This document shows, in pieces, positions 751 through 19,779 of a stretch of DNA of 32,000 nt. The translations under genes were made by a program, and so were the position numbers. Positions within the stretch are counted from its first letter, which is position 1. Each line of letters starts with the position of its first letter. This DNA is from Candidatus Scalindua sp. (lineage in GTDB: Bacteria; Planctomycetota; Brocadiia; Brocadiales; Scalinduaceae): contig JALDRA010000001.1 of assembly GCA_031316235.1 (NCBI GenBank), positions 480,001 through 512,000 on the forward strand, read 5' to 3'. The notes below the pieces were generated by a model. That model was not told the origin of the DNA, made no database searches, and saw nothing but the letters and a program-made list of their open reading frames with translations.

Positions 751-1149
751 GACCTCTCCTTATATATTTGCCCCTCATGTAATCTACGGCTGAATTGACC
801 CAATTCTCATAACTGCGTCATAGATGCAGGGCTTCTTTCAAATATACAATTAGCAATACTCCATTTCTCCTTGCTGCGGCAGCGCCATGGTTTTGACTAT
901 GTCCCGAGTGATCAGCGACACTGCTAACCTCTTCAGGTGAGCACACAGACTATACAGTTACCTCACCAGCGTATACCAGATTCAGTGTAAATTCAAATCT
1001 ATTTTTGAACCTTTTTACGGCACAGCCCCACCGGGAGATTGTCTTTTCTTCCCCTCATCAATGTTTTTCTCGGCTGATCTTCTCTCCCGCTGCATTTCCT
1101 CAAGCGACATAAGAGAAAAACAAGAACAGAATGGCTTTGTACCATAATA

Positions 1150-2022
1150 CTATAGTGACCCGATTCCAACCTCACCATTTTCAGTAATTAAATGATCGAC
1201 AAGTTTAAGGTCTATCAGATCATGGGAGTGTGTGGTTAGATGATAGACACAATCGTCTTGTACCATATCTACCACTTTTAAATAGATATGCTGGCGTGAA
1301 CAGGGTTGGTGGGAAAATTTCAGAGATTTCACAAAGAGGTATACCGGTATATGGTTGATATGGCAGAAGGAGACAACATTTGCCGTTCCTACTACAGTCA
1401 CTGCATGCCTGTCATGGGTAACGGATACCGCACCGATGAACAGTTTAGTTGCTTTTTCAAGCTGCAGGCTCAGGGAATATTCCGGCACTATGATATGGTC
1501 TATACCGGCTTTTGTCAGCAAGGTGATCATCTGTTTTGTCCTCAAAAAATCCTGCTTGAGAACTATTGCTGAAAAATTACGACGCAGTTCTTTTTTGGCT
1601 TCGACTAAAATGCGTTCCACAACAGTACTGGCGGAATGGGTAATAACGATATCATTGTCCTGAACGTATTGCCGGCCGGCCAGGACGACTTTTTCCGTCA
1701 TGGACTCAAACAGTTTTATTTTCTGATTGAGGATCTTAACCGTATGGTCTATGATCTCATCATAACCTGCATCCGCATAGGCAGTTATTTCTGTTTCAAA
1801 CTGTTCGATGAGATGGATAAGGGGTACTATTCTCGGCTCAGTGTTTTTAATGGTTTCAATCAGTTCGGCATACTGGGCCAGAAGATATCCTCTCTTACAC
1901 CGTAACAATTTTACGGCATTTATAAAGGACTTCAATACCGTTATCGTAGTACGGTTAGTTCCAAGCGCTTCTCCATGGTCTCTGAAAAGGCTATATAATT
2001 TTTCACGTTCTGCTGTATTCAT
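1150..2022 (-). CDS. eIF-2B alpha/beta/delta-like protein (MtnA / ribose-1,5-bisphosphate isomerase superfamily), probably non-catalytic
   Basis: ORF 1150..2034. Motifs ITHSASTVVERIL, FIGAVSVT...VVGTANV and DLIDLKLVDHLITENGEV follow the IF-2B family layout (vLTH.nS / GAd.v..nG...NKiGT / D.tp..lI...iTE.G). I prefer ATG 2022 (MNTAEREK) because it forms an ATGA overlap with the upstream gene's stop (2019-2022). Confidence 0.65.
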   Translation of the reverse strand: MNTAEREKLYSLFRDHGEALGTNRTTITVLKSFINAVKLLRCKRGYLLAQYAELIETIKNTEPRIVPLIHLIEQFETEITAYADAGYDEIIDHTVKILNQKIKLFESMTEKVVLAGRQYVQDNDIVITHSASTVVERILVEAKKELRRNFSAIVLKQDFLRTKQMITLLTKAGIDHIIVPEYSLSLQLEKATKLFIGAVSVTHDRHAVTVVGTANVVSFCHINHIPVYLFVKSLKFSHQPCSRQHIYLKVVDMVQDDCVYHLTTHSHDLIDLKLVDHLITENGEVGIGSL

Positions 2023-3323
2023 AATGACAACCACAAATAAATGGAAAGATAGATCGAAGAAATTACCAATGTTATCAATGCAATCAGAGCGCTTGATCTC
2101 ATAAATTCAAAGAAGCTGACAGTATGCCTCAATTTTTTTGCAATGCCTACGGTAACTATATTAGCCGAGGCACCGACTACGGTCAGGTTACCTCCAAAAC
2201 AGGCCCCAAGGACTAACGCCCACCAGAGAATATTATTGGGAACGGGATTTGATTCCTGCATGAGGTTAACAACAGGTATCATGGCAATGGTAAAAGGAAC
2301 ATTATCCAAGAAACCGGAGACTATACCCGACACCCATAATACCATTAAGACCGTGAGGTAGGGATTGTTTCCCATGCGAAGGAACACATTATGTGCCAGC
2401 CACTCAATCACCCCTTTTGATTCCAGTACACCAACCAGAGCAAAGAGACCTGCAAAAAAAAGAAGGGTAGTCCATTCAATATCTTCCAGTATTTTCCCGA
2501 CATCGACCTTTGAAGTTACAAAGAGTAGCATGGCTACAAAAATAGACGCAACACCGGGTGTTATTCGGGTTATGGTTTGAGTAACAAACAGACCGATTAC
2601 TATCGTGAGACAGGCAAGGCTCTTGCAGACAAACATCTTATCAATCTTCATGTTCAAAAATTCATTTCGGATTTTTTCAAGGAGTAATTGAACAGAGAAT
2701 AATCTGGTAAGGTTTGTGTTAATGGGTTTAAATTTCTCTTTGTGGGTTATCCAGATAAATAGTAGTGTAGCACACATGGCAATAAAGACCGGAATGGCAA
2801 GGTTAAATATAAATTGATTAAAAGTCAACCCGACTTTGGAACCAATAATTATATTGGGTGGATCTCCGATCAGCGTCACTGTACCCCCGATATTTGAAAT
2901 AACCGCCTGGCTGATGACGTATAATTTCGGATCTAATCCCATACCGGCCGTTAATTGGATAACTATGGGAATAACAATAAGTACCGTAGTAACGTTATCA
3001 AGGAATGCCGACAAAAAGGCGGTAACAATGGAAAACAGGATCAGTATCTTCAGTGGGCTGCCCTGGGTAAGCTCAGCAATTTTTACCGACACAAATAAAA
3101 AGAGCATGGATCTTTTGAGAACGGCAACGATAGCCATCATCCCCAGCAGCAGCATGATAGTTTCAAAATCAATAAAACCAATGGCCGTATCTTCATCGAC
3201 CACTCGAAATACCAGCAGTACCATGACTCCAAGCAGTACGGCAACGGCTTTATTGATTATTTCAAGGCTGATAACAATGTAAACGGCTATAAAAACAACT
3301 ATCGGGAACCATACTCCGTACAT
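2019..3323 (-). CDS. ArsB/NhaD/CitMHS (SLC13-like) superfamily anion permease
   Basis: 434 aa polytopic membrane protein with many hydrophobic segments. The GDPPNIIIGS motif and the two-halves layout are typical of the ArsB/NhaD permease superfamily. The antisense ORFs in the track (2143.., 2365.., 2836..) are rejected. Confidence 0.7.
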   Translation of the reverse strand: MYGVWFPIVVFIAVYIVISLEIINKAVAVLLGVMVLLVFRVVDEDTAIGFIDFETIMLLLGMMAIVAVLKRSMLFLFVSVKIAELTQGSPLKILILFSIVTAFLSAFLDNVTTVLIVIPIVIQLTAGMGLDPKLYVISQAVISNIGGTVTLIGDPPNIIIGSKVGLTFNQFIFNLAIPVFIAMCATLLFIWITHKEKFKPINTNLTRLFSVQLLLEKIRNEFLNMKIDKMFVCKSLACLTIVIGLFVTQTITRITPGVASIFVAMLLFVTSKVDVGKILEDIEWTTLLFFAGLFALVGVLESKGVIEWLAHNVFLRMGNNPYLTVLMVLWVSGIVSGFLDNVPFTIAMIPVVNLMQESNPVPNNILWWALVLGACFGGNLTVVGASANIVTVGIAKKLRHTVSFFEFMRSSALIALITLVISSIYLSIYLWLSL

Positions 3324-3421
3324 AGTTAAACTCTATTCAGACTTTACTTAAAATAAAGTACTCTTTCATACATCCACGGCTATATTTTCATTCGTTACGA
3401 TTCCATCTGATATATTACTCT

Positions 3422-3820
3422 TTATCTACAACCAGGGGCTTTGCATTTATCTCTTTCACTATGAATATGAGAAGCATACTTACCTAATTGATTACTATAA
3501 GAGTCCCTATGAACAAAATAATCTGTATTTTTTAATACTACTCTATCCTTAAGATTGTACGTATCTCTCAACCTCTTCTCAAGCTCTATATTTCTCTCAT
3601 CATAGAACATCTTTAATGGAATATTTTCCTTACTCCTCCATCTCGACAGCCTTTTAGAAACCAGTGACGGTGAAACATTCAAATCATGGGCAATTTCCCT
3701 TTGCGTAACAAATCCGGGCCACCTGTCATAAATAACCCTGGCGGTCTTATTGTCCAATTCAGGGTCACTTACCGCAATCCTGTACCTGCTCTTATTGTTA
3801 CCATCTCTTTTTTCAGCCAT
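3422..3820 (-). CDS. SorC/DeoR-type HTH regulator, N-terminal domain only (lacks sugar-phosphate-binding domain)
   Basis: ARVIYDRWPGFVTQREIAHDLNVSPSLVSKRLSRWRSKENIPLKMFYDERNIELEKRLRDTYNLKDRVVL matches the SorC-family N-terminal pattern (aArLYY..g.tQ.eIA..L.vSr..VSRlL..Ar..g.V.I.i.d......Le..L...y.Lk...Vv). The ORF stops after 132 aa where about 315 aa is usual. Confidence 0.55.
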   Translation of the reverse strand: MAEKRDGNNKSRYRIAVSDPELDNKTARVIYDRWPGFVTQREIAHDLNVSPSLVSKRLSRWRSKENIPLKMFYDERNIELEKRLRDTYNLKDRVVLKNTDYFVHRDSYSNQLGKYASHIHSERDKCKAPGCR

Positions 3821-3841
3821 AATTTACTTCCTGAACAGGGA

Positions 3842-3923
3842 GTTTTAAACAATGCTCTTCCACCATAGTATGCTGTTTTTGAAATACAGACGGCTGACAA
3901 CGCTCTATGGTGTTGTTTAAAAC
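3842..3923. promoter_or_regulatory. large interrupted inverted repeat in the divergent promoter region (candidate operator)
   Basis: Left arm 3842-3868 is GTTTTAAACAA-tgctcttc-CACCATAG. Right arm 3905-3923 is CTATGGTGTTGTTTAAAAC, whose reverse complement is GTTTTAAACAACACCATAG. That gives 19 matching nt, with an 8-nt insert in the left arm and about 36 bp between the arms. Confidence 0.5.
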
Positions 3924-3940
3924 ACATTGTATAAAATATA

Positions 3941-3969
3941 TTGACACCTGTAATATATTTTCCTAATAT
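3941..3969 (+). promoter_or_regulatory. sigma70-like promoter for the Lrp/AsnC gene
   Basis: TTGACA (3941-3946), a 17-nt spacer, then TAATAT (3964-3969), about 54 nt upstream of ATG 4023. Confidence 0.4.
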
Positions 3970-4022
3970 AAACTCTTTTCGGAATTTAGTTCAATAATAA
4001 AACCAACAGGGCGGCATTACAA

Positions 4023-4616
4023 ATGGGAAGTTTCACAATGAAACTCACAAAGAACGAGATTCATGTACTTAAGCTGCTAGTCCAGAATCCACTAAGTACA
4101 AACCAGGCAATATCAAACAAGCTTGAGATAACCTCCCAGGGTGTCGGCAAGATACGGAAGCAGCTCACAGAGAAAGGGTTTATAAAAAACCAGAAATTAA
4201 GCCTGGATTATGAAAAATTAGGCGTAAACATACATACAATTGCTTTGATAAAGATATTACCCAGTGTTTTTAAAAATTTCAAGAACAACGAATTAGATAA
4301 GGTTTTAAAGCCGAATAATGCTATCAGATGTTATGCAATACCTGAGACAGACATAACCCACATAATAATTTATGCTTTCAGGAATATTAAGGAATATGAC
4401 TCATATTTCAGAAATATTTTAGAGGAATTCGGGGACTATGTGGAGATCAAACACTCCTTTGTCCTTTCATCAGGGAGCATACTGAAATCGTCATCCAAAC
4501 AGATGCTTCTGGAAGTACTCGATAGCTGGGAATTTAATAAAAAAAGAATCTACCGTCGAAACAAAGATGAATACGAAACAGGAGATATGCTGGATAACAG
4601 GAAAAATCGCTTATAA
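4023..4616 (+). CDS. Lrp/AsnC-family transcriptional regulator
   Basis: N-terminal wHTH (LTKNEIHVLKLLVQNPLSTNQAISNKLEITSQGVGKIRKQLTEKGFI) followed by a RAM/AsnC-type ligand domain pattern (LGVNIHTIALIKI...ITHIIIYAFRNIKEYDSYFRNIL). An alternative start is ATG 4038. Confidence 0.8.
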   Translation: MGSFTMKLTKNEIHVLKLLVQNPLSTNQAISNKLEITSQGVGKIRKQLTEKGFIKNQKLSLDYEKLGVNIHTIALIKILPSVFKNFKNNELDKVLKPNNAIRCYAIPETDITHIIIYAFRNIKEYDSYFRNILEEFGDYVEIKHSFVLSSGSILKSSSKQMLLEVLDSWEFNKKRIYRRNKDEYETGDMLDNRKNRL

Positions 4617-4722
4617 TGACAAATTCCGGCATTTTATACACCAGACAATTTGTACCGTACGGTTTTCAGGATTGTAAATAAAACCTTACTGTTAGAAAAA
4701 TCTCTCAATTAAATTGGATATT

Positions 4723-4749
4723 CCGGCAATTCAGATTAGAGATTGCCGG
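4723..4749 (+). promoter_or_regulatory. 8-bp perfect inverted repeat upstream of the CBS gene
   Basis: CCGGCAAT (4723-4730), an 11-nt loop, then ATTGCCGG (4742-4749), 40 nt before ATG 4789. The related word ATTCCGGCA occurs at 4623-4631 and 4720-4728. Confidence 0.3.
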
Positions 4750-4788
4750 CTGTTGAAGAATCATCATAAAAGGAGGCATAGAAATAGT

Positions 4789-5223
4789 ATGATTACGGTA
4801 AACCAAATGCTGAATGACAAAAAGGATGGGGTTTTTACTGTTACACCTGAGGACACTTTACATCATGCATTGAAAGTTATGGCAGATAAAAACATTGGAG
4901 CGGTGGTTGTAGTCAAACAGGGGAAAATCGTTGGAATGTTTTCAGAACGAGATTTTGTGCGAAATGCCGTAGCCGACAGGAAGATATCAATTGATATGAA
5001 GGTAAGTCAATTAATGACGACTGTGGTGTGCTATGTACGCCCGGAACAGGCAATAGATGAGTGCATGGCCTTGATGACAGAGAAACGTACTCGTCATTTG
5101 CCAGTACTGGACGGAGAGAAGCTGATTGGTATTATCAGCATTGGAGATGTATTAAAGCACACCATAGCTGAAAAAGAGTTTACAATTCAGAATCTTGAAA
5201 CTTTTATTTCAGGAGGTCTTTAA
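4789..5223 (+). CDS. CBS-domain pair protein
   Basis: MITVNQMLNDKKDGVFTVTPEDTLHHALKVMADKNIGAVVVV..GKIVGMFSERDFVR plus a second CBS repeat (VSQLMTTVVCYVRPEQAIDECMALMTEKRTRHLPVLDGEKLIGIISIGDVLKH). I prefer ATG 4789, with AAAGGAGG at 4769-4776, over the track start at 4714. Confidence 0.8.
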   Translation: MITVNQMLNDKKDGVFTVTPEDTLHHALKVMADKNIGAVVVVKQGKIVGMFSERDFVRNAVADRKISIDMKVSQLMTTVVCYVRPEQAIDECMALMTEKRTRHLPVLDGEKLIGIISIGDVLKHTIAEKEFTIQNLETFISGGL

Positions 5224-5501
5224 GAGATAAAACATTAAACTATGGGATCGAAATATCTGGCAAAGAGTGCGGATACAAAAACCGATTTGGTTTTAGCATA
5301 TTAACATTTTTTCATCTCTCCTTCATCATGTTTTCATGTTTGGTTGTTATATTTGTCGTTGAGAGACTGATTTGTTGCATATCAGGTGCAGCGGCCTTAT
5401 GAGTAGTTAATTTCTTCAGAAACGAAGAGGCTTATTTTTTTTACTTAATCACAGATGATGTCTTCTTCCGAATAACTGATTCTTAACAAGGAGATAGAAT
5501 T

Positions 5502-7484
5502 ATGTCAGACCTAAAAGCGGATTTGCAAGTTCCAAAGAGTGGCTTTGCGGGTCTAAAACAAAACTTTAAGCAAGACATTATTTCCGGTTTCCTGGTTTTC
5601 CTTATTGCGCTCCCATTATGTCTCGGGATATCCCTTGCCTGCGGTTACCCGGCAATAGCGGGCATATTTACGGCAATTATTGGCGCTATACTTGCCACCG
5701 TTATCAGCAACTCCGAACTGACGATCAAGGGGCCGGCTGCCGGACTTATTGTAATTGCCATCGGAGCGATAACTGAATTTGGATTTACCGGAGGTAAAGA
5801 TCCGGCATCTGATTTACAGGCATACAAGCTCGTCCTCGGAATCGGTGTTGCCGCTGGCTGCATCCAGATTCTTTTCGGTCTGTTTCGTATCGGATCTCTT
5901 AGTGATTTCTTTCCCCTGTCAGTAGTGCACGGGATGCTGGCTGCTATCGGCATAATCATCATACTCAAACAATTTCCTATCGCAATGGGTGGCCGGGCCG
6001 CGGGAGCTCCTCTTGATCTGCTCTTATCAATTCCTGCAAAGATCATACACATGAATCCGAAAATTGCTGCAATAGGTATAGGAAGCCTGGGAATTATGTT
6101 CGGAATACCGCTCATCAAGAACAAATACATCAAGATGGCACCTACTCCCATGTTAGTGCTGATATTTGCCGTACCGTTAGGATTGTATTTTGGCTTATCC
6201 CATGAGCACACATATTTTTTTGAAGGTCGCGAATACAAGGTTGGGGATGAGTTTCTGGTTAACGTTCCGGGAAATATGTTCAAGGCAATGACCTATCCTG
6301 ACTTTTCTGCGTTAAAGACGGTCTCGGGGTGGAAATGGGTGATCATGTTCTCCCTGATCGGCAGCCTGGAGTCCCTGCTCAGTGCAAATGCCATTGATCT
6401 GCTGGACCCCTGGAAACGGAAGACCAATATGAATCGGGACATGCTTGCTGTCGGGATCGGGAATACCGTTTCCGCGTTTATTGGAGGCCTTCCCATGATT
6501 TCTGAGATTGTGCGGAGCAAGGCAAATATTGACAATGGCGCACGAAGCCGTTTCTCAGATCTGTACCATGGGCTTTTTCTGCTTCTTTTTGTGGCATTAG
6601 CACCATTCTTGCTCCATAAGATACCGCTTGCCGCCCTGGCGGCAATGCTCGTATACACCGGTTTTCAATTGACTGCACCACGAAAGTTTACTCTCGTTAA
6701 ACGGATCGGGAGAGAGCAGTTAATCATGTTTGTGGTTACCGTTATAGCTGTACTGGCGACGGACCTGGTTATCGGTATTGCTATCGGGATAGGAACAAAA
6801 TTTATTTTTCATATTATTAATGGCGTTCCGATACGTTCCCTCTTTACGTCCTATCTTGAACTCAGAGAGTTAGACAATGAAACCTGCTTCATTAGAGTTA
6901 AAGAGTCGGCTGTCTTCAGTAACTGGATTCCGATCAAGAAACAGATAGAGCGTTTTGGATTAATTCGAAACAAAAACCTGATATTAGACTTGACAGATAC
7001 CGCTATGGTTGACCACAGTGTGATGGAAAAACTTCACGAAATGAAAGATACGTTCAGTCAGAACAACCTCATGCTGGAAATTGTTGGGTTGGGGGGTCGC
7101 CAGTCTCTGTCCAGCCACCCTCTTTCGACACGCAGAAAGGTAGTTGAGTTAATAAAACGTATTTTGGTCTTTACCGATTCAGTCCTTCAGCCTCTGCTTG
7201 AACAGGAATTAAACTACCATGGGGTAAAAGACTTCACAACTATCGGGTGTGGTGGTGCCGGAGTAGTAACCAGTCAGCGATTGCGTATAGAGATCATAAC
7301 CCCGCCCGACAAAGCCAAACACCTTCTGGATTTTATTCGCGGTGAGATCTTACCAAAATATGCGGAAAAATATTCAGTAAAAGCGTTTACTGAAAATGTG
7401 GAAGTAATCCTTCCCGATGAACCATATGTCACAAAATTAAGTCATAACTCTTTATCAAATCAAACCATAACCATTATGAGATGA
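5502..7484 (+). CDS. SulP-family inorganic anion transporter with C-terminal STAS domain and an additional ~110-aa extension
   Basis: 660 aa. The N-terminus (GLKQNFKQDIISGFLVFLIALPLCLGISLACGYPAIAGIFTAIIGAILATVI) and later motifs (SLESLLSANAIDLL, NTVSAFIGGLPMISEIVRSKANIDNGARSR) are typical of SulP. The STAS-like region is at about aa 455-532 (nt ~6864-7097). AAGGAG lies 7 nt upstream of the ATG. Confidence 0.9.
   Translation: MSDLKADLQVPKSGFAGLKQNFKQDIISGFLVFLIALPLCLGISLACGYPAIAGIFTAIIGAILATVISNSELTIKGPAAGLIVIAIGAITEFGFTGGKDPASDLQAYKLVLGIGVAAGCIQILFGLFRIGSLSDFFPLSVVHGMLAAIGIIIILKQFPIAMGGRAAGAPLDLLLSIPAKIIHMNPKIAAIGIGSLGIMFGIPLIKNKYIKMAPTPMLVLIFAVPLGLYFGLSHEHTYFFEGREYKVGDEFLVNVPGNMFKAMTYPDFSALKTVSGWKWVIMFSLIGSLESLLSANAIDLLDPWKRKTNMNRDMLAVGIGNTVSAFIGGLPMISEIVRSKANIDNGARSRFSDLYHGLFLLLFVALAPFLLHKIPLAALAAMLVYTGFQLTAPRKFTLVKRIGREQLIMFVVTVIAVLATDLVIGIAIGIGTKFIFHIINGVPIRSLFTSYLELRELDNETCFIRVKESAVFSNWIPIKKQIERFGLIRNKNLILDLTDTAMVDHSVMEKLHEMKDTFSQNNLMLEIVGLGGRQSLSSHPLSTRRKVVELIKRILVFTDSVLQPLLEQELNYHGVKDFTTIGCGGAGVVTSQRLRIEIITPPDKAKHLLDFIRGEILPKYAEKYSVKAFTENVEVILPDEPYVTKLSHNSLSNQTITIMR
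7149..7412 (+). other. PII-like (ferredoxin-fold beta-alpha-beta x2) domain at the C-terminus of the SulP protein
   Basis: aa ~550-637 read as KRILVFTD / SVLQPLLEQELNYHGV / KDFTTIGCGGAG / RLRIEIITPPD / KAKHLLDFIRGEILPKY / SVKAFTENVEVI. This has the same segment order as GlnB-type PII proteins (KIEAII.. / ..GITGMTVTEVKGFG / KVKIEIVVPDD.. / GKIFV). The assignment is an inference from pattern, not a search result. Confidence 0.4.
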
Positions 7485-7509
7485 GTAAAAATGGTTAAAG
7501 AGACGTAAA

Positions 7510-8034
7510 ATGGATATATTTTTGAAACTCTTTTCTACACCGAAAACGCTTATTCGACGTCATTCATTAATCGGTGATTCAGGGGTCTTAACTATCGGAA
7601 AAAAGATAGAAAAGAAAGTGAATCGGCTGTTTTCCGGTTCCCTTGCCATCAGAGAAATTGATACAGGTTCAACAAATGCATGTGAACAGGAGATTACCGC
7701 TCTTACCAATACATTTTATGATATTGAGCGGTTTGGTGTCCATTTTGTTGCATCTCCCCGGCACGCCGACATGCTCATGGTTACCGGTCCGGTAACCAGA
7801 AACATGCGTGAAGCCCTGGTAAAAACGTATGAGGCAACCCCGGAACCGAAGATAGTTGTTGCGGTTGGCGATGACGCTATTAATGGCGGAATCTTCAGAG
7901 GGTCGTATGCAGTCCTGGACGGAGTTGACAGGGTTATACCGGTAAATTACTACATACACGGAGACCCGCCTTCACCAATGAAAATCCTTCTCTCCCTTTT
8001 AAATATCCTTGAAATTATAGAGAGTAAATCCTGA
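7510..8034 (+). CDS. NuoB/HycG/HyfI-family small subunit homologue lacking 3 of 4 FeS-cluster cysteines
   Basis: FGVHFVASPRHADMLMVTGPVTRNM...PEPKIVVAVG..INGGIF...VIPVNYYIHGDPPSP aligns by hand with HycG/NuoB (SPRHAD.l.vTG.VT / PKv.ia.GaCa.sGGiF / vPVDvyiPGCPP.P). The ligand positions read T55, C58, D122 and D152. Confidence 0.85.
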   Translation: MDIFLKLFSTPKTLIRRHSLIGDSGVLTIGKKIEKKVNRLFSGSLAIREIDTGSTNACEQEITALTNTFYDIERFGVHFVASPRHADMLMVTGPVTRNMREALVKTYEATPEPKIVVAVGDDAINGGIFRGSYAVLDGVDRVIPVNYYIHGDPPSPMKILLSLLNILEIIESKS

Positions 8035-8057
8035 TATAAGGAAAACGGACAATAGTT

Positions 8058-10106
8058 ATGTTGAATGTCATTACCGCTCAAATCTGTTTTTTCATCATGC
8101 TGTTATCTTTTGCAACCGGAGCAGCAGGCTCACTCCTCTTCATGAAAGATGACACACGTTCAAACTTGTGGGCTAATATCTCCGCAATTATTGGATCGAC
8201 GTTCGGTATCATTTCTTCGCTGATCGTCCTGGTATCAGGGAGCGGCTTTTCCTGTAACCTGAAATCATCGTTCCCTCTTCTTTCCTTTTCAATACAGGTA
8301 GACTGCCTCTGCGCTTTTTTCCTCTTCCTCATCTCAGTAATCTCCCTTTTGTGCTCTCTGTACGCAATAGGGTACACCAGACAGTACTATAAACACTACA
8401 ATATCGGTTCGCTGGGATTTTTCTATAACACTTTTCTTACCGGCATGGTATTTGTGGTTTCTGCGCACAACGGGCTGTTTTTTCTTGTGGTCTGGGAAGT
8501 AATGTCTCTCTCATCTTATTTCCTTGTTATTTTTGAACACAAAGAAGAAAAAAATATTGCGGCGGGATCGTTATATTTTGTTATGACGCATATTGGCACG
8601 GCCTTTATCATACTTGCGTTTCTGCTTCTTTACAAATCAACAGGTTCTCTCGATTTTACCATAATAAAAGACAGCATCGGTGAAATCTCACCTGTTACAA
8701 AAAATGCGGTCTTTATCCTTGCACTTATCGGGTTCGGGACAAAGGCGGGTATCATTCCGCTTCATACGTGGCTCCCAAGTGCTCACCCTGCGGCACCCTC
8801 ACATGTTTCCGCTTTAATGTCAGGGGTCATGATCAAGACAGCCATCTACATGTTAATCAGGATCTTTATGGAATTTATGCCTGATACACCTTTATGGTGG
8901 GGAGTTGTAATTCTCTTTGTCGGTTCTATATCTTCCCTCTTTGGCGTTCTCTATGCACTCTCGGAAAATGATCTTAAAAGATTACTGGCATTCAGCAGCA
9001 TTGAAAACATAGGCATTATTTTGCTCGGGCTTGGTGCTTCGCTGGTTTTCCTGGCCCTGGGTATGAAGCCATATGCAATGATGGCACTGATAGCGTCTTT
9101 ATTTCACACCCTAAACCATGCAACATTCAAGGCTTTACTCTTTTTGGGGGCAGGCTCAGTTATATCGAAAACAGGCACGCGTAATATCGAAGAATATGGC
9201 GGTATCATAAAATTTTTACCGTATACCGCATTTTTCTTTTTAATAGGTTCGATGGCAATTTCAGCACTCCCTCCGTTTAATGGTTTTTTCAGTGAATGGC
9301 TTACGTTTCAATCACTTTTCTCCGGAATTAAAACTACGCATATTTTTATCAAATTGATCTTTATCTCTGCGGCAGGTTCGCTGGCGTTAACGGGTGGCCT
9401 TGCCGCTGCCTGTTTTGTAAGGGCATTTGGTCTTGTATTCCTGGCACGTCCCAGGAGCGAGAGAACAATTTGTGCAAAAGAATCTTCAGTTTCATTACTG
9501 TCTGGTATGGGGGTTCTTGCAGCACTCACATTGCTGTTTGGGTTTTTTTCAGGATATATTTCAGCACTACTTTCAAAGGTTACAAAGAGTATTGTTGTTT
9601 TTCAGGGATCAGAACCAGCGGTTTCATCAAATTTTGAAACTGTCAGATTGCAGGATGGAACAGCCACCGTTTCCATGCCCGGCATCCTCATCTCCCTGGT
9701 CCTTGCTCTTCTGGCCATAACCGTTTTTGTCTATTTCCTGACACGCAGGCAAAAGGTTAAAAAGGGTATCACCTGGGATTGCGGAACACCTTTTACCGGA
9801 AGGATGGAGATAACGGCTACAGGCTTTTCGAGGTCATTGGTAACGATATTCAAGGGTATCCTGAAACCAACCAAACAAACTGATATTGAATACCATGATT
9901 CGAACCTTAAATATTTCACAAAATTTAACATAACGACACTGGGAACAGGGCACGACATTTACAATGAATATTTATATGCTCCTTTAAACAAATTAATCAC
10001 CAGGATTGCGAAATATCTCAGCGTGATTCAAAGCGGAAACATAAACGCTTATGTACTCTATATTATCATTGCCTTAATTACCCTGATACTACTCTTGGTA
10101 GTTTAA
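8058..10106 (+). CDS. HyfB/HycC/NuoL-type antiporter-like membrane subunit
   Basis: 682 aa, close to the size of E. coli HyfB. Contains VVWEVMSLSSYFLV (TM5 Glu, E147), GFGTKAGIIPLHTWLPSAHPAAPSHVSALMSGVMIKTAIY (K229) and FHTLNHATFKALLFLGAGSV. Confidence 0.85.
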   Translation: MLNVITAQICFFIMLLSFATGAAGSLLFMKDDTRSNLWANISAIIGSTFGIISSLIVLVSGSGFSCNLKSSFPLLSFSIQVDCLCAFFLFLISVISLLCSLYAIGYTRQYYKHYNIGSLGFFYNTFLTGMVFVVSAHNGLFFLVVWEVMSLSSYFLVIFEHKEEKNIAAGSLYFVMTHIGTAFIILAFLLLYKSTGSLDFTIIKDSIGEISPVTKNAVFILALIGFGTKAGIIPLHTWLPSAHPAAPSHVSALMSGVMIKTAIYMLIRIFMEFMPDTPLWWGVVILFVGSISSLFGVLYALSENDLKRLLAFSSIENIGIILLGLGASLVFLALGMKPYAMMALIASLFHTLNHATFKALLFLGAGSVISKTGTRNIEEYGGIIKFLPYTAFFFLIGSMAISALPPFNGFFSEWLTFQSLFSGIKTTHIFIKLIFISAAGSLALTGGLAAACFVRAFGLVFLARPRSERTICAKESSVSLLSGMGVLAALTLLFGFFSGYISALLSKVTKSIVVFQGSEPAVSSNFETVRLQDGTATVSMPGILISLVLALLAITVFVYFLTRRQKVKKGITWDCGTPFTGRMEITATGFSRSLVTIFKGILKPTKQTDIEYHDSNLKYFTKFNITTLGTGHDIYNEYLYAPLNKLITRIAKYLSVIQSGNINAYVLYIIIALITLILLLVV

Positions 10107-10112
10107 ACAGAC

Positions 10113-11051
10113 ATGGTTACCATACTTATCTGGACAATTCAGTTATTGCTTGTTCCTGCACTTTCACCGCTTCTTATCGGTGTGGTTAGAAAGATGAAGG
10201 CCAGACTGCAGAATCGAAAAGGGGCAGATATTTTTCAGCCTTACAGAGATCTCTGGAAACTGATGCACAAGGATGAAGTCATCAGCGAAGATGCTTCCTG
10301 GGTTTTTCGTACTGCCCCTTATATTATTTTCGGGATTACCATGATTGTCGGCGCCAGTATCCCACTGTTTACGACACTGATCCCGGATATCCTATTACAT
10401 GATTTTCTTGTAATTGTGTACCTTCTTGCGATAGGAACTTTTTTTCTGGCTCTTGCAGGCCTTGACACAGGGAATGCCTTTGGAGGTTTTGGATCGAGTC
10501 GAGAAATGGTTGTGGCCGCTTTAGCAGAAGGAGGCTTTATCTTCTCTTTTCTCGTACTCGCCTTACTATCAAATTCCACAAATCTGTTTTCCATAGCAGA
10601 ACATGTAGAAACTTTGCGCTTACACTCAAATGTTGAATTTGTGTCAATTGGTTTTGCTTTCTTCGGTTTTTTTATTGTCCTTCTTGCTGAAACCGGGCGT
10701 TACCCATTTGATAATCCCTCCACACACCTGGAACTTACGATGATTCACGAAGCAATGATTCTGGAGTACTCTGGCAAAAGACTTGCCCTTGTTGAATGGG
10801 CCGCTGCCAACAAATTCATGATTTTTCTCGCACTGGGTGTGAACCTGTTTTTCCCCTGGGGTATGGCGAATTCATCAGATTTCACCGATATCATTGTTTC
10901 CCTCGCCTTGTTTCTATCAAAGATGCTGGGTTTTTGCCTTACGATTGCAACGCTTGAATCACGGGTTGCCAAGATCAGATTTTTTAGAATACCAGACATT
11001 TTATTTACCTCTTTTATCCTTTGTGTGATTGCCATTGTAATAATTATTTAG
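10113..11051 (+). CDS. HyfC/HycD/NuoH-type membrane subunit
   Basis: 312 aa. The N-terminus (SPLLIGVVRKMKARLQNRKGADIFQPYRDLWKLMHKDE) and THLELTMIHEAMILEYSGKRLAL match the HycD/NuoH family pattern. Confidence 0.85.
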   Translation: MVTILIWTIQLLLVPALSPLLIGVVRKMKARLQNRKGADIFQPYRDLWKLMHKDEVISEDASWVFRTAPYIIFGITMIVGASIPLFTTLIPDILLHDFLVIVYLLAIGTFFLALAGLDTGNAFGGFGSSREMVVAALAEGGFIFSFLVLALLSNSTNLFSIAEHVETLRLHSNVEFVSIGFAFFGFFIVLLAETGRYPFDNPSTHLELTMIHEAMILEYSGKRLALVEWAAANKFMIFLALGVNLFFPWGMANSSDFTDIIVSLALFLSKMLGFCLTIATLESRVAKIRFFRIPDILFTSFILCVIAIVIII

Positions 11052-11059
11052 GAAAATTC

Positions 11060-11719
11060 ATGATTGAGATCTCATCACAAATTCTGTTTTATCTGGAAGT
11101 ATTAATCTATCTATCAGCAACGTTAATGCATCTGACAAAAAAAAATAGATCCATAATTTTTCTTTACCTGTTCCAATCACTCATTACAACGGTTTTGCTG
11201 GTAATTTTTTCGATCGAAAAGTTCAGTGAATCCCTGGTCTTTGTCATTTTCCTCACATTTTTAGTTAAAGTTATACTTGCCCCGCTTTTCTTTATGAAAC
11301 TGGTCAAACGGCATCAATTACAAATCGCCGTAAGCACGTATCTCAATATACCAATGACTCTTTTAGTTTTAACAATACTGACGGCAGTCACCCATTATCA
11401 CTTTCTTGAACCGCTTACTTCGCTTTCCCCCGGAGAAGAGAAGCTTTTGCTGCTTTCTGTCGCGACTATATTAATATCTCTCTTCCTGATAATAAACCGA
11501 AAGGGGGCTTTGTCACAGATGATCGGAATTTTGTCCCTTGAAAATGCAATAGTATCTTTTGCCTCGTTTGCGAGACTCGAGCACAACCCCGGACTTCAAA
11601 TCGGCATTATTTTTGATCTGCTTGTATGGACCATTATTGCCACAGTATTTGTTTCAATGATTTTCAGGAAATTCGGCACCTTAAATATTACCTCGATAAA
11701 AAAAACCCTGGAAGAATAA
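11060..11719 (+). CDS. HyfE-type small membrane subunit
   Basis: From ATG 11060 (MIEISSQ...) the protein is 219 aa. The C-terminal half (GALSQMIGILSLENAIVSFASFARLEHNPGLQIGIIFDLLVWTIIATVFVSMIFRKFGTLNITSIKKTLEE) parallels E. coli HyfE (..ILRQIFGYCLMENGSHLV...EIGIATDAIFAVIVMVLLARKIWRTHGTLDVNNLTALKG, recalled from memory). Confidence 0.7.
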   Translation: MIEISSQILFYLEVLIYLSATLMHLTKKNRSIIFLYLFQSLITTVLLVIFSIEKFSESLVFVIFLTFLVKVILAPLFFMKLVKRHQLQIAVSTYLNIPMTLLVLTILTAVTHYHFLEPLTSLSPGEEKLLLLSVATILISLFLIINRKGALSQMIGILSLENAIVSFASFARLEHNPGLQIGIIFDLLVWTIIATVFVSMIFRKFGTLNITSIKKTLEE

Positions 11720-11722
11720 AGC

Positions 11723-13171
11723 ATGTTAATATTTTTTCTCATTTTACCGCCCTGTCTGGCAGCGATGTTTTCTGTTTTTGTTCAAAAGAGAACCGGACTT
11801 ATTGAAAGATTTACTTTCATAGCTTCTGTTATTGAACTCTCAGCAGGTTTAAGCATAGTAACGTTTGTTCAACCGGGCAAACCGTATTCGCTCACTTCCT
11901 GTTTTTCTGTTGACGCCCTTGGTGCAATCCTGATACTCATGATAACCGTCATCGGACTTTTTGTCTCGTGGTATTCAATCAGCTATTTAAGATATGAAGT
12001 GACAGGACAGGTAATAGGTTTCAGCAGGGTTCGACAGTACTATATTTTCCTGAACCTGTTTCTGATGGCAATGCTTCTGGCGGTAACCACAACAAGCCCG
12101 ATAATAATGTGGATTGCCATTGAAGGTACAACGCTTTCGACAGCCTTCCTCATAAGCTTTTATAATGATCCATCGGCCGTAGATGCAGCCTGGAAATATT
12201 TGATTGTTAATTCAGTTGGACTACTCCTGGGCTTTATGGGAACACTTCTTTTCTTTTCACCCGTCATAAGCAGCACGAGTCATCAGGGTTTTGTATTCTG
12301 GGATACAATTTTTGCAAACGCACAGAATTCCAACCCCTTTATCGCAAAGATTGCCTTTGTCTTCGTCCTGATAGGGTATGGAACAAAGATGGGGCTGGTA
12401 CCTATGCATACGTGGCTGCCCGATGCCCACAGTAAAGCCCCGGTCCCGATAAGCAGCCTCCTTTCAGGCGTTCTTTTAAGTGTTGCCTTTTTTGCTATTC
12501 TTCACTTCAAAAAAGTTACTGATGCAATGTTAGGCCCTGGCTTTGCGCAGAATTTGTTGATGGTTTTTGGTACGATTTCTGTTTTTATGGCCTCCTTCTT
12601 TATCTATAATCAAAAGAGTTATAAACGCCTGCTCGCTTACTCCAGCATAGAGCACATGGGAATTATTGCCCTGGGTTATGGATTTGGCGGTATCGGTGCA
12701 TTCGCAGCGCTCCTTCACATGATCTTTCATGCTCTAGCAAAATCCTTGCTTTTTCTGTCTGCGGGTAACGTCTATTTAAGATTTAAATCAACTAAAATTC
12801 TTGATGTGAAAGGTGCACTTTCTGCCTTACCCATAACCAGCGTTCTCCTTCTGATTGGGTTTCTGGCTATAACCGGTGTCCCACCGTTCGGTATTTTTTT
12901 TACCGAACTATATATTCTGGCAAGCGGCATCACGAATCATCCTGTTATTACGATTATCGTGTTATTCTCACTTGTTCTTATTTTTGCCGGATTCTTACGT
13001 CATTTTACCTCCATGGTGTTCGGAAAAACCCCGGATACTATTTCAAGAGGAGAATCAAACATGGAGACTATCTTACCTTTAATTGTCATGACTATTCTCT
13101 TTATCATTATCAGCATCTATCTGCCGTCTCACATCAAGAGTTTGATTGATGCTGCCGTTTCAACGTACTAA
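11723..13171 (+). CDS. HyfF/NuoN/NuoM-type antiporter-like membrane subunit
   Basis: 482 aa. Contains IIMWIAIEGTTLSTAFLI (E134), GYGTKMGLVPMHTWLPDAHSKAPVPISSLLSGVLL (K222), YSSIEHMGIIALG and IFHALAKSLLFLSAGNV. Confidence 0.85.
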   Translation: MLIFFLILPPCLAAMFSVFVQKRTGLIERFTFIASVIELSAGLSIVTFVQPGKPYSLTSCFSVDALGAILILMITVIGLFVSWYSISYLRYEVTGQVIGFSRVRQYYIFLNLFLMAMLLAVTTTSPIIMWIAIEGTTLSTAFLISFYNDPSAVDAAWKYLIVNSVGLLLGFMGTLLFFSPVISSTSHQGFVFWDTIFANAQNSNPFIAKIAFVFVLIGYGTKMGLVPMHTWLPDAHSKAPVPISSLLSGVLLSVAFFAILHFKKVTDAMLGPGFAQNLLMVFGTISVFMASFFIYNQKSYKRLLAYSSIEHMGIIALGYGFGGIGAFAALLHMIFHALAKSLLFLSAGNVYLRFKSTKILDVKGALSALPITSVLLLIGFLAITGVPPFGIFFTELYILASGITNHPVITIIVLFSLVLIFAGFLRHFTSMVFGKTPDTISRGESNMETILPLIVMTILFIIISIYLPSHIKSLIDAAVSTY

Positions 13172-13173
13172 TT

Positions 13174-14748
13174 ATGAATACGGATCAGATTGTAGAAAAA
13201 TATGTCCCGGGGAACATGAAAGTAGAGATTTACGGCAATATCATAACCTACAAAATATATAAAAAAAATATTTCCCGGGTCTTTTACACCCTTTATCATA
13301 CGCTGAAACTCCCGCTCAAGACAATAACCGTTACTGACGAGAGGGAGGAAAATGATTCTTTCAAGATTTTTTATCTTTTCGGAGTCCCGGGGGAAAAAGT
13401 GTTTCTTGCCCCCTATATACTGCTGTCAAAAGAATACAAATTCCCTTCTCTCGCAAGTATGAATCACGTAACCACTGAGTATGAAAAGAAGATCAAGTCT
13501 CTTTTCGGTCTAGACCCAACTGGCCATTTAAACCCGAAAAAAATTATCCTTCACGAAAACTGGCCGGACAATGTGTTTCCCTTAAGAAGGGAATTTGACT
13601 GGAAGTCCAGGCCTGATATTGCGCATACTCCGTTTCATTTCGAAAAGGTTGAAGGAGATGGTATTTACGAAATCCCCGTAGGTCCCGTTCACGCGGGCAT
13701 TATTGAACCCGGTCACTTTCGCTTCAGTGTTGCTGGTGAAGAGATACTCTTGCTGGAACCGAGGCTGGGATATACACACAAAGGAAGCGAGAAGCTCTTT
13801 GAAGTCCTCTCTTCCATGGATGAGAAGATTACATTGTCAGAAAGGGTATCCGGCGACAGTTCATTCAGCCATTCACTTGCCTTTTGCCAGGCAATTGAAT
13901 CGTTATGTGAATATGAGGTGACAGAAAGATCAAAGTATCTTCGGGTTATTTATTCGGAACTTGAGAGATTGGCGAATCATTTTGGAGACATTGGAGCCAT
14001 AATGCTGGACACTGGTTTCAGTTTTGGAGGAAGCAATGGCGGCCGTTTACGGGAAATTGTCATGCAGCTGAACGAGCTGTTAACAGGCAGCCGTTTTCTC
14101 CGGGGCGTAAATACAGTAGGCGGTGTAACCAAAGACATATCAGCCCCTCTTATTGACAAGATCTTAAATGAGCTGGAAGATATAAGAAAAGACTTTGAAG
14201 AAGTTATTCATATAGCAGAAAATTGTAATTCTCTGTTGAATCGACTCAAGGGTACCGGAGTGTTAGAAACTCGTATTGCCAGGGACCACGGAGTGGTCGG
14301 TATCGTGGCAAGGTCAATGGGTTTTGCAGCAGATGCCAGAATTGACTACCCATATGCTGCTTATGACAGGTTCTCTTTTGCAGCAGCGACAGAGAATGAA
14401 GGAGATGTATACGCACGATTTTGTGTCCGTGTAAAAGAGAGCTATACCTCCATCCAGATCCTTAAAGAAGCATTAGCGACTCTTCCTGGGGGACCTTGTC
14501 TGGTTTCACCAAAACCCGTCTCCTTGAATAAAGCCAGCTATGGACTTGGAATAACCGAGGGATGGCGTGGCGACATCATTTACTTTGTGGCGACAAATTC
14601 CCGGGGACAGATTATCAGGGTTGATGTGAGAGACCCATCATTTCTAAACTGGCCGGTTCTCAGACATGCCGGGAAAGGCAACGTTGTCCCGGACTTCCCT
14701 CTCATCAACAAAAGTTTCAATCTCTCTTATTCAGGATTCGATTTGTAG
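13174..14748 (+). CDS. HyfG/HycE-type large subunit homologue (NuoC-NuoD fusion) lacking all four NiFe cysteine ligands
   Basis: GPVHAGIIEPGHFRFSVAGEEILLLEPRLGYTHKGSEKL is the group-4 large-subunit signature. The L1 motif reads ERVSGDSSFSH where ERvCGiC..aH is expected. The C-terminus reads DFPLINKSFNLSYSGFDL-stop where D.PLi..S.DPCySCtDR is expected. Confidence 0.85.
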   Translation: MNTDQIVEKYVPGNMKVEIYGNIITYKIYKKNISRVFYTLYHTLKLPLKTITVTDEREENDSFKIFYLFGVPGEKVFLAPYILLSKEYKFPSLASMNHVTTEYEKKIKSLFGLDPTGHLNPKKIILHENWPDNVFPLRREFDWKSRPDIAHTPFHFEKVEGDGIYEIPVGPVHAGIIEPGHFRFSVAGEEILLLEPRLGYTHKGSEKLFEVLSSMDEKITLSERVSGDSSFSHSLAFCQAIESLCEYEVTERSKYLRVIYSELERLANHFGDIGAIMLDTGFSFGGSNGGRLREIVMQLNELLTGSRFLRGVNTVGGVTKDISAPLIDKILNELEDIRKDFEEVIHIAENCNSLLNRLKGTGVLETRIARDHGVVGIVARSMGFAADARIDYPYAAYDRFSFAAATENEGDVYARFCVRVKESYTSIQILKEALATLPGGPCLVSPKPVSLNKASYGLGITEGWRGDIIYFVATNSRGQIIRVDVRDPSFLNWPVLRHAGKGNVVPDFPLINKSFNLSYSGFDL

Positions 14749-14884
14749 TCACTCCCTGCCCTATGTTCCCGTGTTGATTATATAGTGCGTGAACGAAAAC
14801 TGTCCGGGTGCAAGACGCGCAATAATTGCGTAACCGGGGCATACTCAAGTACGTCCTGAAGAACCTGTTTAGCAGGAGAGCTTT

Positions 14885-14903
14885 TATACTCATCTCATAA
14901 CTG
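14885..14903 (+). repeat. 5'-end fragment of the TA-flanked MITE-like repeat family
   Basis: TA|TACTCATCTCATAACTG matches the first 13 nt of the family 5' end exactly. No matching 3' end was found downstream. Confidence 0.5.
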
Positions 14904-15190
14904 TTTTTCCTTGATTTACAAAGTTCTTACCGTTATCCTAAGCTCTTTATCTGGCCCCTTGCCGCCTTCACGGTATTAAACAGTGCTTAGACACAATCCC
15001 TGTGTCTGCCCCGGAACTGCCGGGATGCAGGGCGGCCAGAAATTCAGTAACCTGTTTCTGGATAAACACTTGAAGATTGCTGAACTATTGCAGCGACGCA
15101 GGAGATGGGTAGTTCAATCCCAACCGCTGAATAAATACGGTAAATTAATCGTAAGGCTCCGGTAGCAATACTTATACCCGGCTATGGAAC

Positions 15191-17871: not shown

Positions 17872-17982
17872 TATACTCACCTTATACTGGATTTCGGATA
17901 AAATCCGGGAAAAAACTGGGCGGGAAAGTCCTCGGCGTTTTCTGTCCGGGGATACCAGCAACCAGGCTTTGGTTTTAGAATA
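17872..17982 (+). mobile_element. MITE-like repeat, diverged copy A
   Basis: TA|TACTCACCTTATACTGGATTTCGGATAAAATCCGGGAAAAAACTGGGCGGG...ACCAGGCTTTGGTTTTAGAA|TA. It shares both ends and the TCGGAT-aaa-ATCCG palindrome with copies B and E, and starts 1 nt after the GT2 stop codon. ORF 17877..18143(-) across it is rejected. Confidence 0.6.
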
Positions 17983-17993
17983 GCAGAAAGACT

Positions 17994-18911: not shown

Positions 18912-18983
18912 GTACTGTGGAATACTCTGAAATAACGGCGCTCACCCTGAGACACTGCGGAAATCATTTTAGCAGATACATGG

Positions 18984-19684: not shown

Positions 19685-19779
19685 CAATATTGAGGTTCCG
19701 GGTGAAAGTGACAACCATTTTTTACGGCAGTATTTTGAAAGGACATAAGTTACTTATTAATCTTTTTAAGGAGTACAGT

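Follow-up and report, generated by a model that had tools for sequence, protein, structure and literature searches.

A 32,000-nucleotide stretch of the genome of Candidatus Scalindua sp. (contig JALDRA010000001.1; hereafter the window) carries a six-gene operon of the group 4 hydrogenase and complex I type, in which the small subunit has lost the ligands of its iron-sulfur (Fe-S) cluster. At the four positions where relatives have the cysteines that bind the proximal [4Fe-4S] cluster (N2 in complex I), this protein has T55, C58, D122 and D152, and it very probably holds no Fe-S cluster and provides no electron relay. The large subunit lacks the NiFe ligands as well, and the predicted complex belongs, by the published definition, to the already described energy-converting hydrogenase-related (Ehr) family. 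Since the machine is strongly conserved in many bacteria and has no recognizable redox-metal site, it most likely moves ions and not electrons. Our preferred reading, to which we give a probability of about one half when taken as a whole package, is a redox-independent cation/proton translocator in which the cluster site has been rebuilt as an acidic, probably cation-binding structural site.

The small subunit matches Pfam family PF01058 (Oxidored_q6; 1.8e-24, 86.3 bits against a cut-off of 27), and in a phmmer search of all PDB chains its nearest solved relatives are HycG of E. coli (7z0s_G, 3e-30) and MbhJ of P. furiosus (6cfw_J, 1.1e-29), followed by mitochondrial NDUFS7/PSST (about 1e-24), T. 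thermophilus Nqo6 (1.7e-19) and E. coli NuoB (7.6e-17). An AlphaFold2 (AF2) model made from 120 homologues (pLDDT 88.2) has MbhJ 6cfw_J as its top Foldseek match (E 1e-15, TM score 0.74/0.89, root-mean-square deviation 1.9 Å), and the protein is predicted to have the flavodoxin-like fold of the NuoB/HycG/MbhJ family. The ligand motifs align to HycG, MbhJ and NDUFS7 without gaps in HMMER alignments. Loop 1 reads idtgsTnaCeqei against vdcggCngCeiei in HycG and vnsgsCngCdiei in MbhJ, the third ligand region reads avgdDainggif against sygaCgnsggif, and the fourth ihgDppsp against ipgCpptp; the tandem CC of complex I falls on A57-C58. These alignments bear out a preliminary description of the window, made by a model from the letters alone, which had assigned T/C/D/D to the four ligand positions; its nucleotide coordinates for D51-E61, D122 and D152 are exact, and the flanking signature ASPRHADMLMVTGPVT (Table 1) is intact as it had stated. 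C58 is the only cysteine of the protein, so no re-alignment can yield a four-Cys site, and the alternative that a shifted alignment would place cysteines on the ligand positions is ruled out.

The replacement residues are strongly conserved among close relatives. In the 120 nearest clusters at 90% identity, which are 67–76% identical to the query and derive largely from metagenome bins of Patescibacteria, the Candidate Phyla Radiation (CPR), D122 and D152 are found in all 120, C58 in 119, D121 in 118 and T55 in 105 (the remainder having S or D), at a mean column identity of 64%. Loop 1 residues G53, S54, E59 and E61 are invariant in this set, and the invariant residues of the ASPRHADMLMVTGPVT region are S82, P83, H85, A86, D87, M88, V91, T92 and G93. 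H150 is private to the Scalindua sequence, with P in 111 of the 120 relatives; the exact small-subunit sequence was found in a Candidatus Scalindua metagenome-assembled genome (MAG). Judged from this conservation, the T/C/D/D pattern is a trait under purifying selection and not a product of decay.

The large subunit, a NuoC-NuoD fusion like HycE, reads S226, S229, S489 and N492 at the four NiFe cysteine positions, and both CxxC motifs (L1 and L2) are missing, with R-V-S-G-D-S-S-F-S-H and D-P-S-F-L-N-W in their places. Nor does the operon appear to supply electrons by another route. A CxxCxxCxxxC motif is absent from all six frames of the whole window, and Pfam searches of the 22 longer open reading frames (ORFs), the others being covered by the motif scan only, found no ferredoxin-type, formate dehydrogenase or NuoE/F/G/I-like gene. 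Two further statements of the preliminary description, that the operon has no other FeS subunit and that electron transfer is very unlikely, are upheld by the absence of this motif together with the single cysteine of the small subunit, the S/S/S/N of the large subunit and the existence of nine Cys-free members of the same clade, described below.

The small-subunit family alignment, used to scan one genome per GTDB species, gave 80 loci, for each of which the residues at the four small-subunit and four large-subunit ligand positions were tabulated. The NiFe cysteines are missing from every large subunit of the matched operons (SSSN, STSN, SNSN or SSSQ), the one exception being a separate second gene cluster in L038 (CCAN). 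The small subunits are divided, with all four cysteines (CCCC) in 46 loci and other patterns, here called cluster-less, in 34. The CCCC hosts include Alphaproteobacteria (Bradyrhizobium and Ensifer, of the 'Hyq' type), Acidobacteriota, Methylomirabilota, methanogen-related archaea, Desulfuromonas and others, and the cluster-less hosts are many Patescibacteria lineages, Thermoleophilia/Actinomycetes, Syntrophus (with L017 labelled Syntrophus aciditrophicus, of a cultivable genus), Desulfobacterales and MAGs labelled Bdellovibrionales. It had been suggested from the window alone that the T/D/D pattern might co-vary with Cys-less large subunits, but this is not what we find, as all matched large subunits are Cys-less, yet 46 of the 80 small subunits are CCCC. 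Because the NiFe cysteines are absent in all and the cluster is kept in 46, we conclude that the NiFe site was lost first and the Fe-S cluster later, in a nested sub-clade.

The phylogenies are consistent with this order of events. A neighbor-joining tree of the small subunit places the cluster-less sequences as one clade inside the CCCC sequences, and the concatenation of four other subunits (1,967 columns, with L035 left out and L021 outside the tree through length filters) recovers the cluster-less clade in 100/100 bootstrap replicates. We interpret these trees as one main loss of the cluster, in essentially one clade, with a second loss possible. The cluster-less patterns are TCDD (14 loci and the window), SEGD (7), DCDD, DADD, TADD, DPDD, DCDN, DADN, DAEN, SEDD, TEGN and TEGE, and the genes invariably run small-NuoL-NuoH-HyfE-HyfF-large. 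When 1.84 billion representative proteins were searched exhaustively with HMMER, 5,894 family members were obtained at E <= 1e-3, the top 150 of which add NEGD, DVEG, DAAD, SAES, ECED, DVDD, TDES and other non-Cys patterns; position 58 is A, E, P or V in sister lineages. No ferredoxin-type ORF is present in any of the 34 cluster-less operons. Among the CCCC loci, ten have a 2x[4Fe-4S] ORF or fusion directly upstream of the small subunit, and the others have a lone proximal cluster. The lone cluster of many CCCC Ehr/Hyq operons has, as far as their gene content tells, no obvious electron wire; loci with a lone proximal [4Fe-4S] but neither NiFe ligands nor a ferredoxin ORF include L034, L036, L037, L040, L044, L053, L054, L064, L066 and others.

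Cysteine is absent altogether from 9 of the 34 cluster-less small subunits, which excludes an Fe-S cluster for these proteins and, by homology, makes an unusual cluster on C58 unlikely in Scalindua. A cluster on non-Cys ligands was considered and rejected as unlikely on the same nine proteins and on the exchange of C58 for A, E, P or V in sister lineages. What has replaced the cysteines is largely acidic. Of 160 cluster-less sequences, 154, covering 16 of the 19 distinct patterns, have three to four carboxylates at positions 55, 58, 121, 122 and 152, with a placement that varies with lineage: D121, D122 and D152 in TCDD, E58, D121 and D152 in SEGD, and D55, D121 and E122 in DAEN. In nearly all patterns, none of the three former cluster loops is left without an O- or S-donor. 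D121, which is not itself a ligand position, is D in 34/34 cluster-less loci as against only 45% of the CCCC relatives. Three buried carboxylates would need a counter-charge, which either a bound cation or basic large-subunit side chains might supply. We note also that the N-terminal K-I-F-S-T-P-K-T-V-I (residues 1–17, window 7510–7560) is conserved in the cluster-less clade, with K6 at 100% compared with 26% in CCCC relatives.

The large subunit changes little with the loss of the cluster. Conservation of D228, D487, S489 and W493 is 95% or higher among cluster-less operons and 90% or higher among CCCC operons, some 40 polar residues are kept in both groups, and the former NiFe motifs S-G-D228-S/T-x-x-x-H and D-P-S-x-x-N/Q-W are retained in all Ehr groups examined. 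Only four columns track cluster loss (A46L, A212L, L297M and L308F), with no new basic residues; these bulkier hydrophobic side chains may fill a cavity.

The membrane arm is similarly well conserved. PDB matches of the NuoL-like subunit include HycC (7z0s_C, 4.5e-78), MbhH (1.3e-59) and Mrp (7qru_A, 5.4e-46), MrpA and MrpD being among them, and the NuoH-like subunit matches HycD (7z0s_D, 5.8e-46); the HyfE-like subunit matches the NCBIfam 'hydrogenase 4 membrane subunit' model at 1e-14, below its cut-off. With the register checked against HycC and MbhH, the canonical residues of both antiporter-like subunits show 93% conservation or more among cluster-less operons and 90% or more among CCCC operons. 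These comprise, in the NuoL-like and HyfF-like subunits respectively, the Glu of transmembrane helix (TM) 5 (E147 and E134), the Lys of TM7 (K229 and K222), the Lys of TM12 (K358 and K340) and the connecting His (H350 and H354; H332 and H336), together with the TM8 Lys, which is K260 in the NuoL-like subunit and is not conserved in the HyfF-like one. The Glu chain of the NuoH-like subunit (E131, E139, E193, E207, E213, E218 and E228) and E174 of the HyfE-like subunit are conserved alike in both groups, and the proton/ion-channel residues of the arm are thus intact. Six Patescibacteria loci were compared with Scalindua: in five of them all six subunits are 45–73% identical to their Scalindua counterparts, and in the sixth, L021, HyfE is down to 33%. 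As listed, the HyfE-like ORF starts at a TTG at 11021 (MCDCHCNNYLGKF), still within the 3' end of the NuoH-like gene; the ATG at 11060 (MIEISS...) is probably the likelier start, in which case the three cysteines of the TTG-start extension are probably untranslated.

The six genes are tightly spaced, with gaps of 2–23 nt and the small subunit first, and form the core hydrogenase set, with HycC/D/E/G-like and HyfE/F-like subunits all present. A gene for a SulP-family anion transporter ends 25 nt before the small-subunit gene; no terminator-like site was found between the two (a promoter/terminator scan of 3800–15300 was otherwise uninformative), and they are probably co-transcribed. The SulP protein has a weak STAS match (0.0019, residues 441–660) and a C-terminal extension of about 100 residues to which Pfam has no match, and it falls below the cut-off of the NCBIfam sulP subfamily model. 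Its top solved relative is 6ki1_A (5.8e-21), which we take to be the transmembrane domain of the bicarbonate transporter BicA. Upstream of the SulP gene are genes for a CBS-domain protein and a helix-turn-helix (HTH) regulator.

Flanking genes in relatives were compared after shadow ORFs had been filtered out, and the recurrent neighbors of the cluster-less operons are ion-related genes; no recurring redox partner was found in the flanks of the 34 cluster-less loci. In seven CPR loci (L024, L010, L023, L005, L013, L003 and L021) the cassette adjoins F1Fo ATP synthase genes. The clearest arrangement is that of L024 (Saccharibacteria MAG CAYHUB010000003.1), where the six-gene cassette (10001–17202) lies between atpG (9096–9989) and atpD-atpC (17224–19019), all on the same strand and with gaps of 11 and 21 nt. 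The atpC gene abuts the small-subunit gene in L010 and L023, and in the four other CPR loci the atp genes are 0.3–4.2 kb away. The ATP synthase c subunits beside the cassettes (ORFs L013:2736–2972, L023:4042–4266, L024:6356–6622 and L021:13219–13455) have A-E-A or V/T-E-A at the ion-binding Glu. They lack the Gln plus Ser/Thr that we take to be the Na+-binding motif of the Ilyobacter tartaricus c-ring, which suggests that these ATP synthases are H+-coupled.

In L026 and L028–L031, which come from a Moranbacteria MAG and from Bdellovibrionales-labelled MAGs, the SEGD-type operons are preceded by genes for a Na+/H+ exchanger (PF00999, 712 aa) and a DedA/VTT protein; convergently downstream in L027–L030 is a gene for a ferric-reductase-like transmembrane protein (PF01794). 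A close relative of the window's locus is L081 (GCA_021776915.1), whose small subunit is 74% identical to that of the window and which has the same SulP-cassette arrangement, with SulP at 7681–9633 sharing the weak STAS match and the C-terminal extension of about 100 residues. It is flanked by a complete divergent Mrp (MnhA-G-like) operon (402–6513, - strand) and a convergent DabA gene (PF10070; 17938–20508, - strand), and the region looks like an ion and inorganic-carbon transport island. SulP was rejected as a general partner, being found only in the window, in L081 in the same orientation, and in L078 on the opposite strand of a CCCC-type locus. It is missing from 79 of the 80 genome loci, which makes the SulP-Ehr link lineage-specific.

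The Ehr family reportedly takes its name from EhrA-D/L/S of Geobacter sulfurreducens, in work by Marreiros et al. of 2013. Ehr complexes are defined by a large subunit that is related to group 4 hydrogenases but lacks the Ni-Fe-coordinating residues (PMC6349859, PMC10284858), and HydDB deliberately leaves them out as non-hydrogenases (PMC5037454). Their function is not established, although ion translocation is suspected (PMC6349859, PMC10284858, PMC7894505). The Scalindua operon shares with them the group 4 core subunit set, the large subunit without CxxC NiFe ligands, and the antiporter-like and NuoH-like subunits. However, the four cluster cysteines persist in the operons nearest to that of Geobacter (e.g. 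Desulfuromonas L069) and in 45 further loci, and some operons carry a fused or adjacent NuoI-like 2x[4Fe-4S] module (see also PMC6349859 Supplementary Note 4), of which there is none in the present sub-clade; this sub-clade is further set apart by its leading small-subunit gene and by the carboxylates in the cluster site. The proximal cluster typical of described Ehr/Hyq operons is absent here and in all 34 cluster-less loci. The Hyq cluster found in diazotrophs of the Alphaproteobacteria (Sprecher et al. 2012, cited by PMC4758237) is likewise a hydrogenase-4-like operon without canonical NiFe ligands, and Bradyrhizobium/Ensifer loci L054, L056 and L079 are among the relatives, but it differs in having a CCCC small subunit, the order NuoL-NuoH-(HyfE)-HyfF-large-small, and SSSQ at the large-subunit positions.

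Relationships to better characterized complexes are more distant in function. E. coli Hyc (7z0s) and Hyf and P. furiosus Mbh (6cfw) provide the best solved relatives of the three subunits that were searched, with a small-subunit fold as in MbhJ, but these enzymes make H2 and contain a NiFe site, a proximal [4Fe-4S] cluster and subunits of ferredoxin type (HycB/HycF, MbhN), and the corresponding ligand sets are missing here. NuoB/Nqo6/NDUFS7 of complex I share the fold and family PF01058, whereas the Scalindua operon has only NuoB/CD/H/K/L/N-like genes, with no NuoE/F/G/I/A/J partners, A57-C58 in place of the tandem-Cys motif, no N2 cluster and no quinone chemistry to be expected. Assignment to a hydrogenase or formate hydrogenlyase (FHL) or to complex I was rejected on the absence of the NiFe and Fe-S ligands and of ferredoxin subunits. 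Mrp (Mnh/Pha) antiporters are redox-independent, and their NuoL/M/N-like and NuoK-like subunits share the Glu/Lys channel residues; we propose them as functional analogues. They differ in having no NuoH-, NuoB- or NuoD-like subunits and in having MrpB/E/F/G, and of the seven subunits MrpA-G only MrpA/D-like and MrpC/NuoK-like elements are present in this operon. DabAB and the cyanobacterial NDH-1MS complex (CupA) also use complex-I-type modules, to drive non-redox CO2 hydration, and DabA lies beside the L081 cassette, but both have a dedicated Zn-containing catalytic subunit and none is encoded in this operon.

As a redox-independent translocator, the complex would be a Mrp-like, ion-gradient-driven antiporter built on a hydrogenase chassis. 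The secondary-antiporter part of this proposal is tentative, with the odds somewhat against it. Such an antiporter could serve ion and pH homeostasis beside the ATP synthase and secondary transporters, the adjacent SulP among them, and in Scalindua might perhaps maintain an ion gradient for a SulP symporter. The soluble small/large cap would be retained to close and gate the NuoH-like channel. The cavity of the cubane would have become an acidic pocket, formed by D121, D122 and D152 with T55/C58 here and by E58/D121/D152 or D55/D121/D122 in sisters, that most likely holds a cation or forms pairs with basic large-subunit residues. In either case it would staple the same three loops once held by the cluster and preserve the interface of the small, large and NuoH-like subunits. 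We infer transport, the transported ion and cation binding alike from sequence comparison.

Several observations weigh against this proposal. The acidic character of the pocket is not universal, as the pattern TCDGN contains just one carboxylate and the patterns TEDGN and TCNDD contain two each, and charge compensation within the pocket is not significant (column-shuffle fraction 0.12, with kinship ignored), so that our claim is limited to a conserved acidic pocket, compensation being unproven. The preliminary suggestion that the carboxylates bind a cation or simply fill the site fits the invariance of D122 and D152 and the prevalence of carboxylates across the clade; it is not proven by them. 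Monophyly of the cluster-less group has 54/100 bootstrap support from the small subunit only, with the ligand columns removed, and falls to 36–38/100 in the concatenated tree when the long-branched L035 is included. Mrp works without a NuoB/NuoD/NuoH-like module, and the strong retention of this module here is unexplained. Finally, the former NiFe pocket is nearly identical with or without the cluster and may carry chemistry that the translocator model ignores; its invariance is the observation that this model explains least well.

That invariance is the starting point for a different proposal, in which the conserved pocket of the large subunit hosts a non-redox reaction coupled to the ion gradient, for example CO2/HCO3- interconversion as in DabAB or the CupA-containing NDH-1MS, or an exergonic acid-base or hydrolytic reaction driving a primary pump; the small-subunit acidic pocket would then be part of a proton or cation relay to the large-subunit site. 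The conservation of the former NiFe residues and of some 40 polar residues in all Ehr groups argues for a working pocket, the position of the Scalindua operon behind a SulP gene with a presumed BicA structure as its nearest solved relative and the DabA gene just downstream in L081 are further points in its favor, and a primary pump would fit CPR bacteria, where respiratory chains are absent and the cassette is linked to ATP synthase genes. We nevertheless consider such coupling unlikely, as the operon has no carbonic-anhydrase-like or other catalytic domain and no evident His/Cys metal-binding triad, SulP is almost always missing and scores far under the BicA equivalog cut-off (120 against 880 bits), DabA occurs once only and on the opposite strand, and most hosts (CPR, Bdellovibrionales-labelled MAGs) are not known to be autotrophs. 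A bolder version, in which a cofactor-free machine of the complex-I/hydrogenase type is a primary pump on a non-redox reaction or an obligate partner of F1Fo, with the tri-carboxylate site as a charge switch replacing N2, is rather improbable.

The atp linkage could also be read as regulatory: the complex might, for instance, leak protons through a gate, or act as a sensor that adjusts the ATP synthase, its acidic pocket responding to a cation or to pH. Although the cassette lies inside or abuts the atp operon in CPR loci, and a CBS-domain protein and HTH regulator are encoded upstream in the window, six subunits of about 2,400 residues with all channel residues conserved would be a costly accessory of membrane energetics, notably in tiny CPR genomes, and the linkage is seen in only 7 of 34 loci; we regard such a role as improbable. 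That the complex is still a redox enzyme, through a mononuclear Fe/Zn/Ni on Cys58/Asp122/Asp152, an O-ligated cluster or a partner encoded elsewhere, is highly improbable. C58 is kept in 119 of the 120 close relatives, Asp can ligate Fe-S clusters in some proteins, and the CCCC sisters retain a lone proximal cluster in operons that encode no ferredoxin subunit, but a single cysteine that sisters exchange for A, E, P or V, nine Cys-free proteins, a large subunit without NiFe ligands, the lack of an Fe-S motif in 32 kb and the lack of a recurring redox partner in the flanks of 34 loci are difficult to reconcile with it. A decaying, functionless hydrogenase relic would account for the loss of every known catalytic ligand, but is already effectively refuted by conservation: the six ORFs are intact and tightly spaced with the cross-phylum identity noted above, the replacement residues are invariant, and the cassette is found in at least 120 distinct 90%-identity clusters and is kept in streamlined CPR genomes.

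The redox-independent reading has consequences for annotation. The small subunit just passes the NCBI NuoB subfamily model (118.2 bits against a cut-off of 116), which accounts for its database name 'NuoB', and the operon also has a match to the NCBI 'hydrogenase 4 subunit B' model (683.8 against 667); pipelines call such genes NuoB, hydrogenase-4 or formate hydrogenlyase, and KEGG/NCBI models would label this cluster FHL, which it cannot be. The NuoB name, too, is most likely wrong. A comparative study of hadal Scalinduaceae from 2026 described 'FHL' genes as unique to the family and inferred the use of formate (PMC12998229). If those genes are this cluster, as seems plausible, the formate claim does not follow, and 'NADH dehydrogenase' calls in CPR genomes may share the same misannotation. 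The Ehr family and its loss of NiFe ligands are known. A literature search found Ehr described only as lacking NiFe ligands, and no mention of a small subunit without Fe-S ligands, of replacement carboxylates or of a CPR ATP-synthase linkage, although earlier mention is possible, e.g. in Coppi 2005 or Marreiros et al. 2013; the cluster-less sub-clade, its conserved carboxylates and the CPR atp linkage are thus apparently new in that we could not find them described.

The operons can be arranged as a graded series, from NiFe hydrogenases through Ehr with a ferredoxin module and proximal cluster, and Ehr/Hyq with a lone cluster, to cofactor-free Ehr, the last of which then spread over Patescibacteria, Actinomycetota, Desulfobacterota, Bdellovibrionales-labelled MAGs and Planctomycetota. 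The cofactor-free complexes offer a natural test case for how a soluble cap controls a membrane arm with no electron input and with carboxylates at the N2 site, and their physical linkage to atp operons points to an unrecognized element of CPR membrane energetics. Were a primary pump to prove correct, it would be a chemiosmotic energy source for CPR bacteria, and a complex with no redox cofactor at all would be a natural 'redox-free' model of complex I coupling.

Table 1. Features of the Ehr operon and the preceding SulP gene, in window coordinates.
Feature	Position	Strand	Description or basis
SulP-family anion transporter, 660 aa	5502..7484	+	Pfam Sulfate_transp 2.4e-51
Small subunit, HycG/MbhJ/NuoB type, without Fe-S ligands	7510..8034	+	174 aa, ATG start; Pfam, PDB search, AF2
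Loop 1, D51-T-G-S-T55-N-A-C58-E-Q-E61, where hydrogenases have CxxC and complex I has CC	7660..7692	+	Alignment to HycG, MbhJ, NDUFS7
Intact family signature ASPRHADMLMVTGPVT, residues 81-96	7750..7797	+	Alignments
D121-D122; D122 is the third cluster-ligand position	7870..7875 (D122 7873-7875)	+	Alignment
D152, fourth cluster-ligand position, in H-G-D-P-P-S-P	7963..7965	+	Alignment
NuoL/HyfB/HycC/MbhH-like antiporter-type subunit, 682 aa	8058..10106	+	Pfam Proton_antipo_M 1.6e-58
NuoH/HycD/MbhM-like subunit, 312 aa	10113..11051	+	Pfam NADHdh 3.3e-44
HyfE-like membrane subunit, NuoK-like C-terminal half	11060..11719	+	Pfam Oxidored_q2 1e-4
HyfF/NuoN-like antiporter-type subunit, 482 aa	11723..13171	+	Pfam Proton_antipo_M 6.8e-52
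Large subunit, NuoC-NuoD fusion like HycE, 524 aa, without NiFe cysteines	13174..14748	+	Pfam Complex1_30kDa + Complex1_49kDa
S226-G-D228-S229-S-F-S-H233 in place of hydrogenase C-G-x-C-x-x-x-H	13849..13872	+	Alignment
D487-P-S489-F-L-N492-W493 in place of hydrogenase D-P-C-x-x-C	14632..14652	+	Alignment

A 96-aa GTG ORF antisense to the small-subunit gene (7669–7959, - strand) was treated as a shadow ORF. On the 3' side of the operon is a gene for a 581-aa protein with two Kdo/WaaP-type lipopolysaccharide kinase-like domains (15191–16936), and elsewhere the window codes for a di-haem cytochrome c peroxidase (19690–20895) and a CitMHS transporter (2019–3323, - strand).

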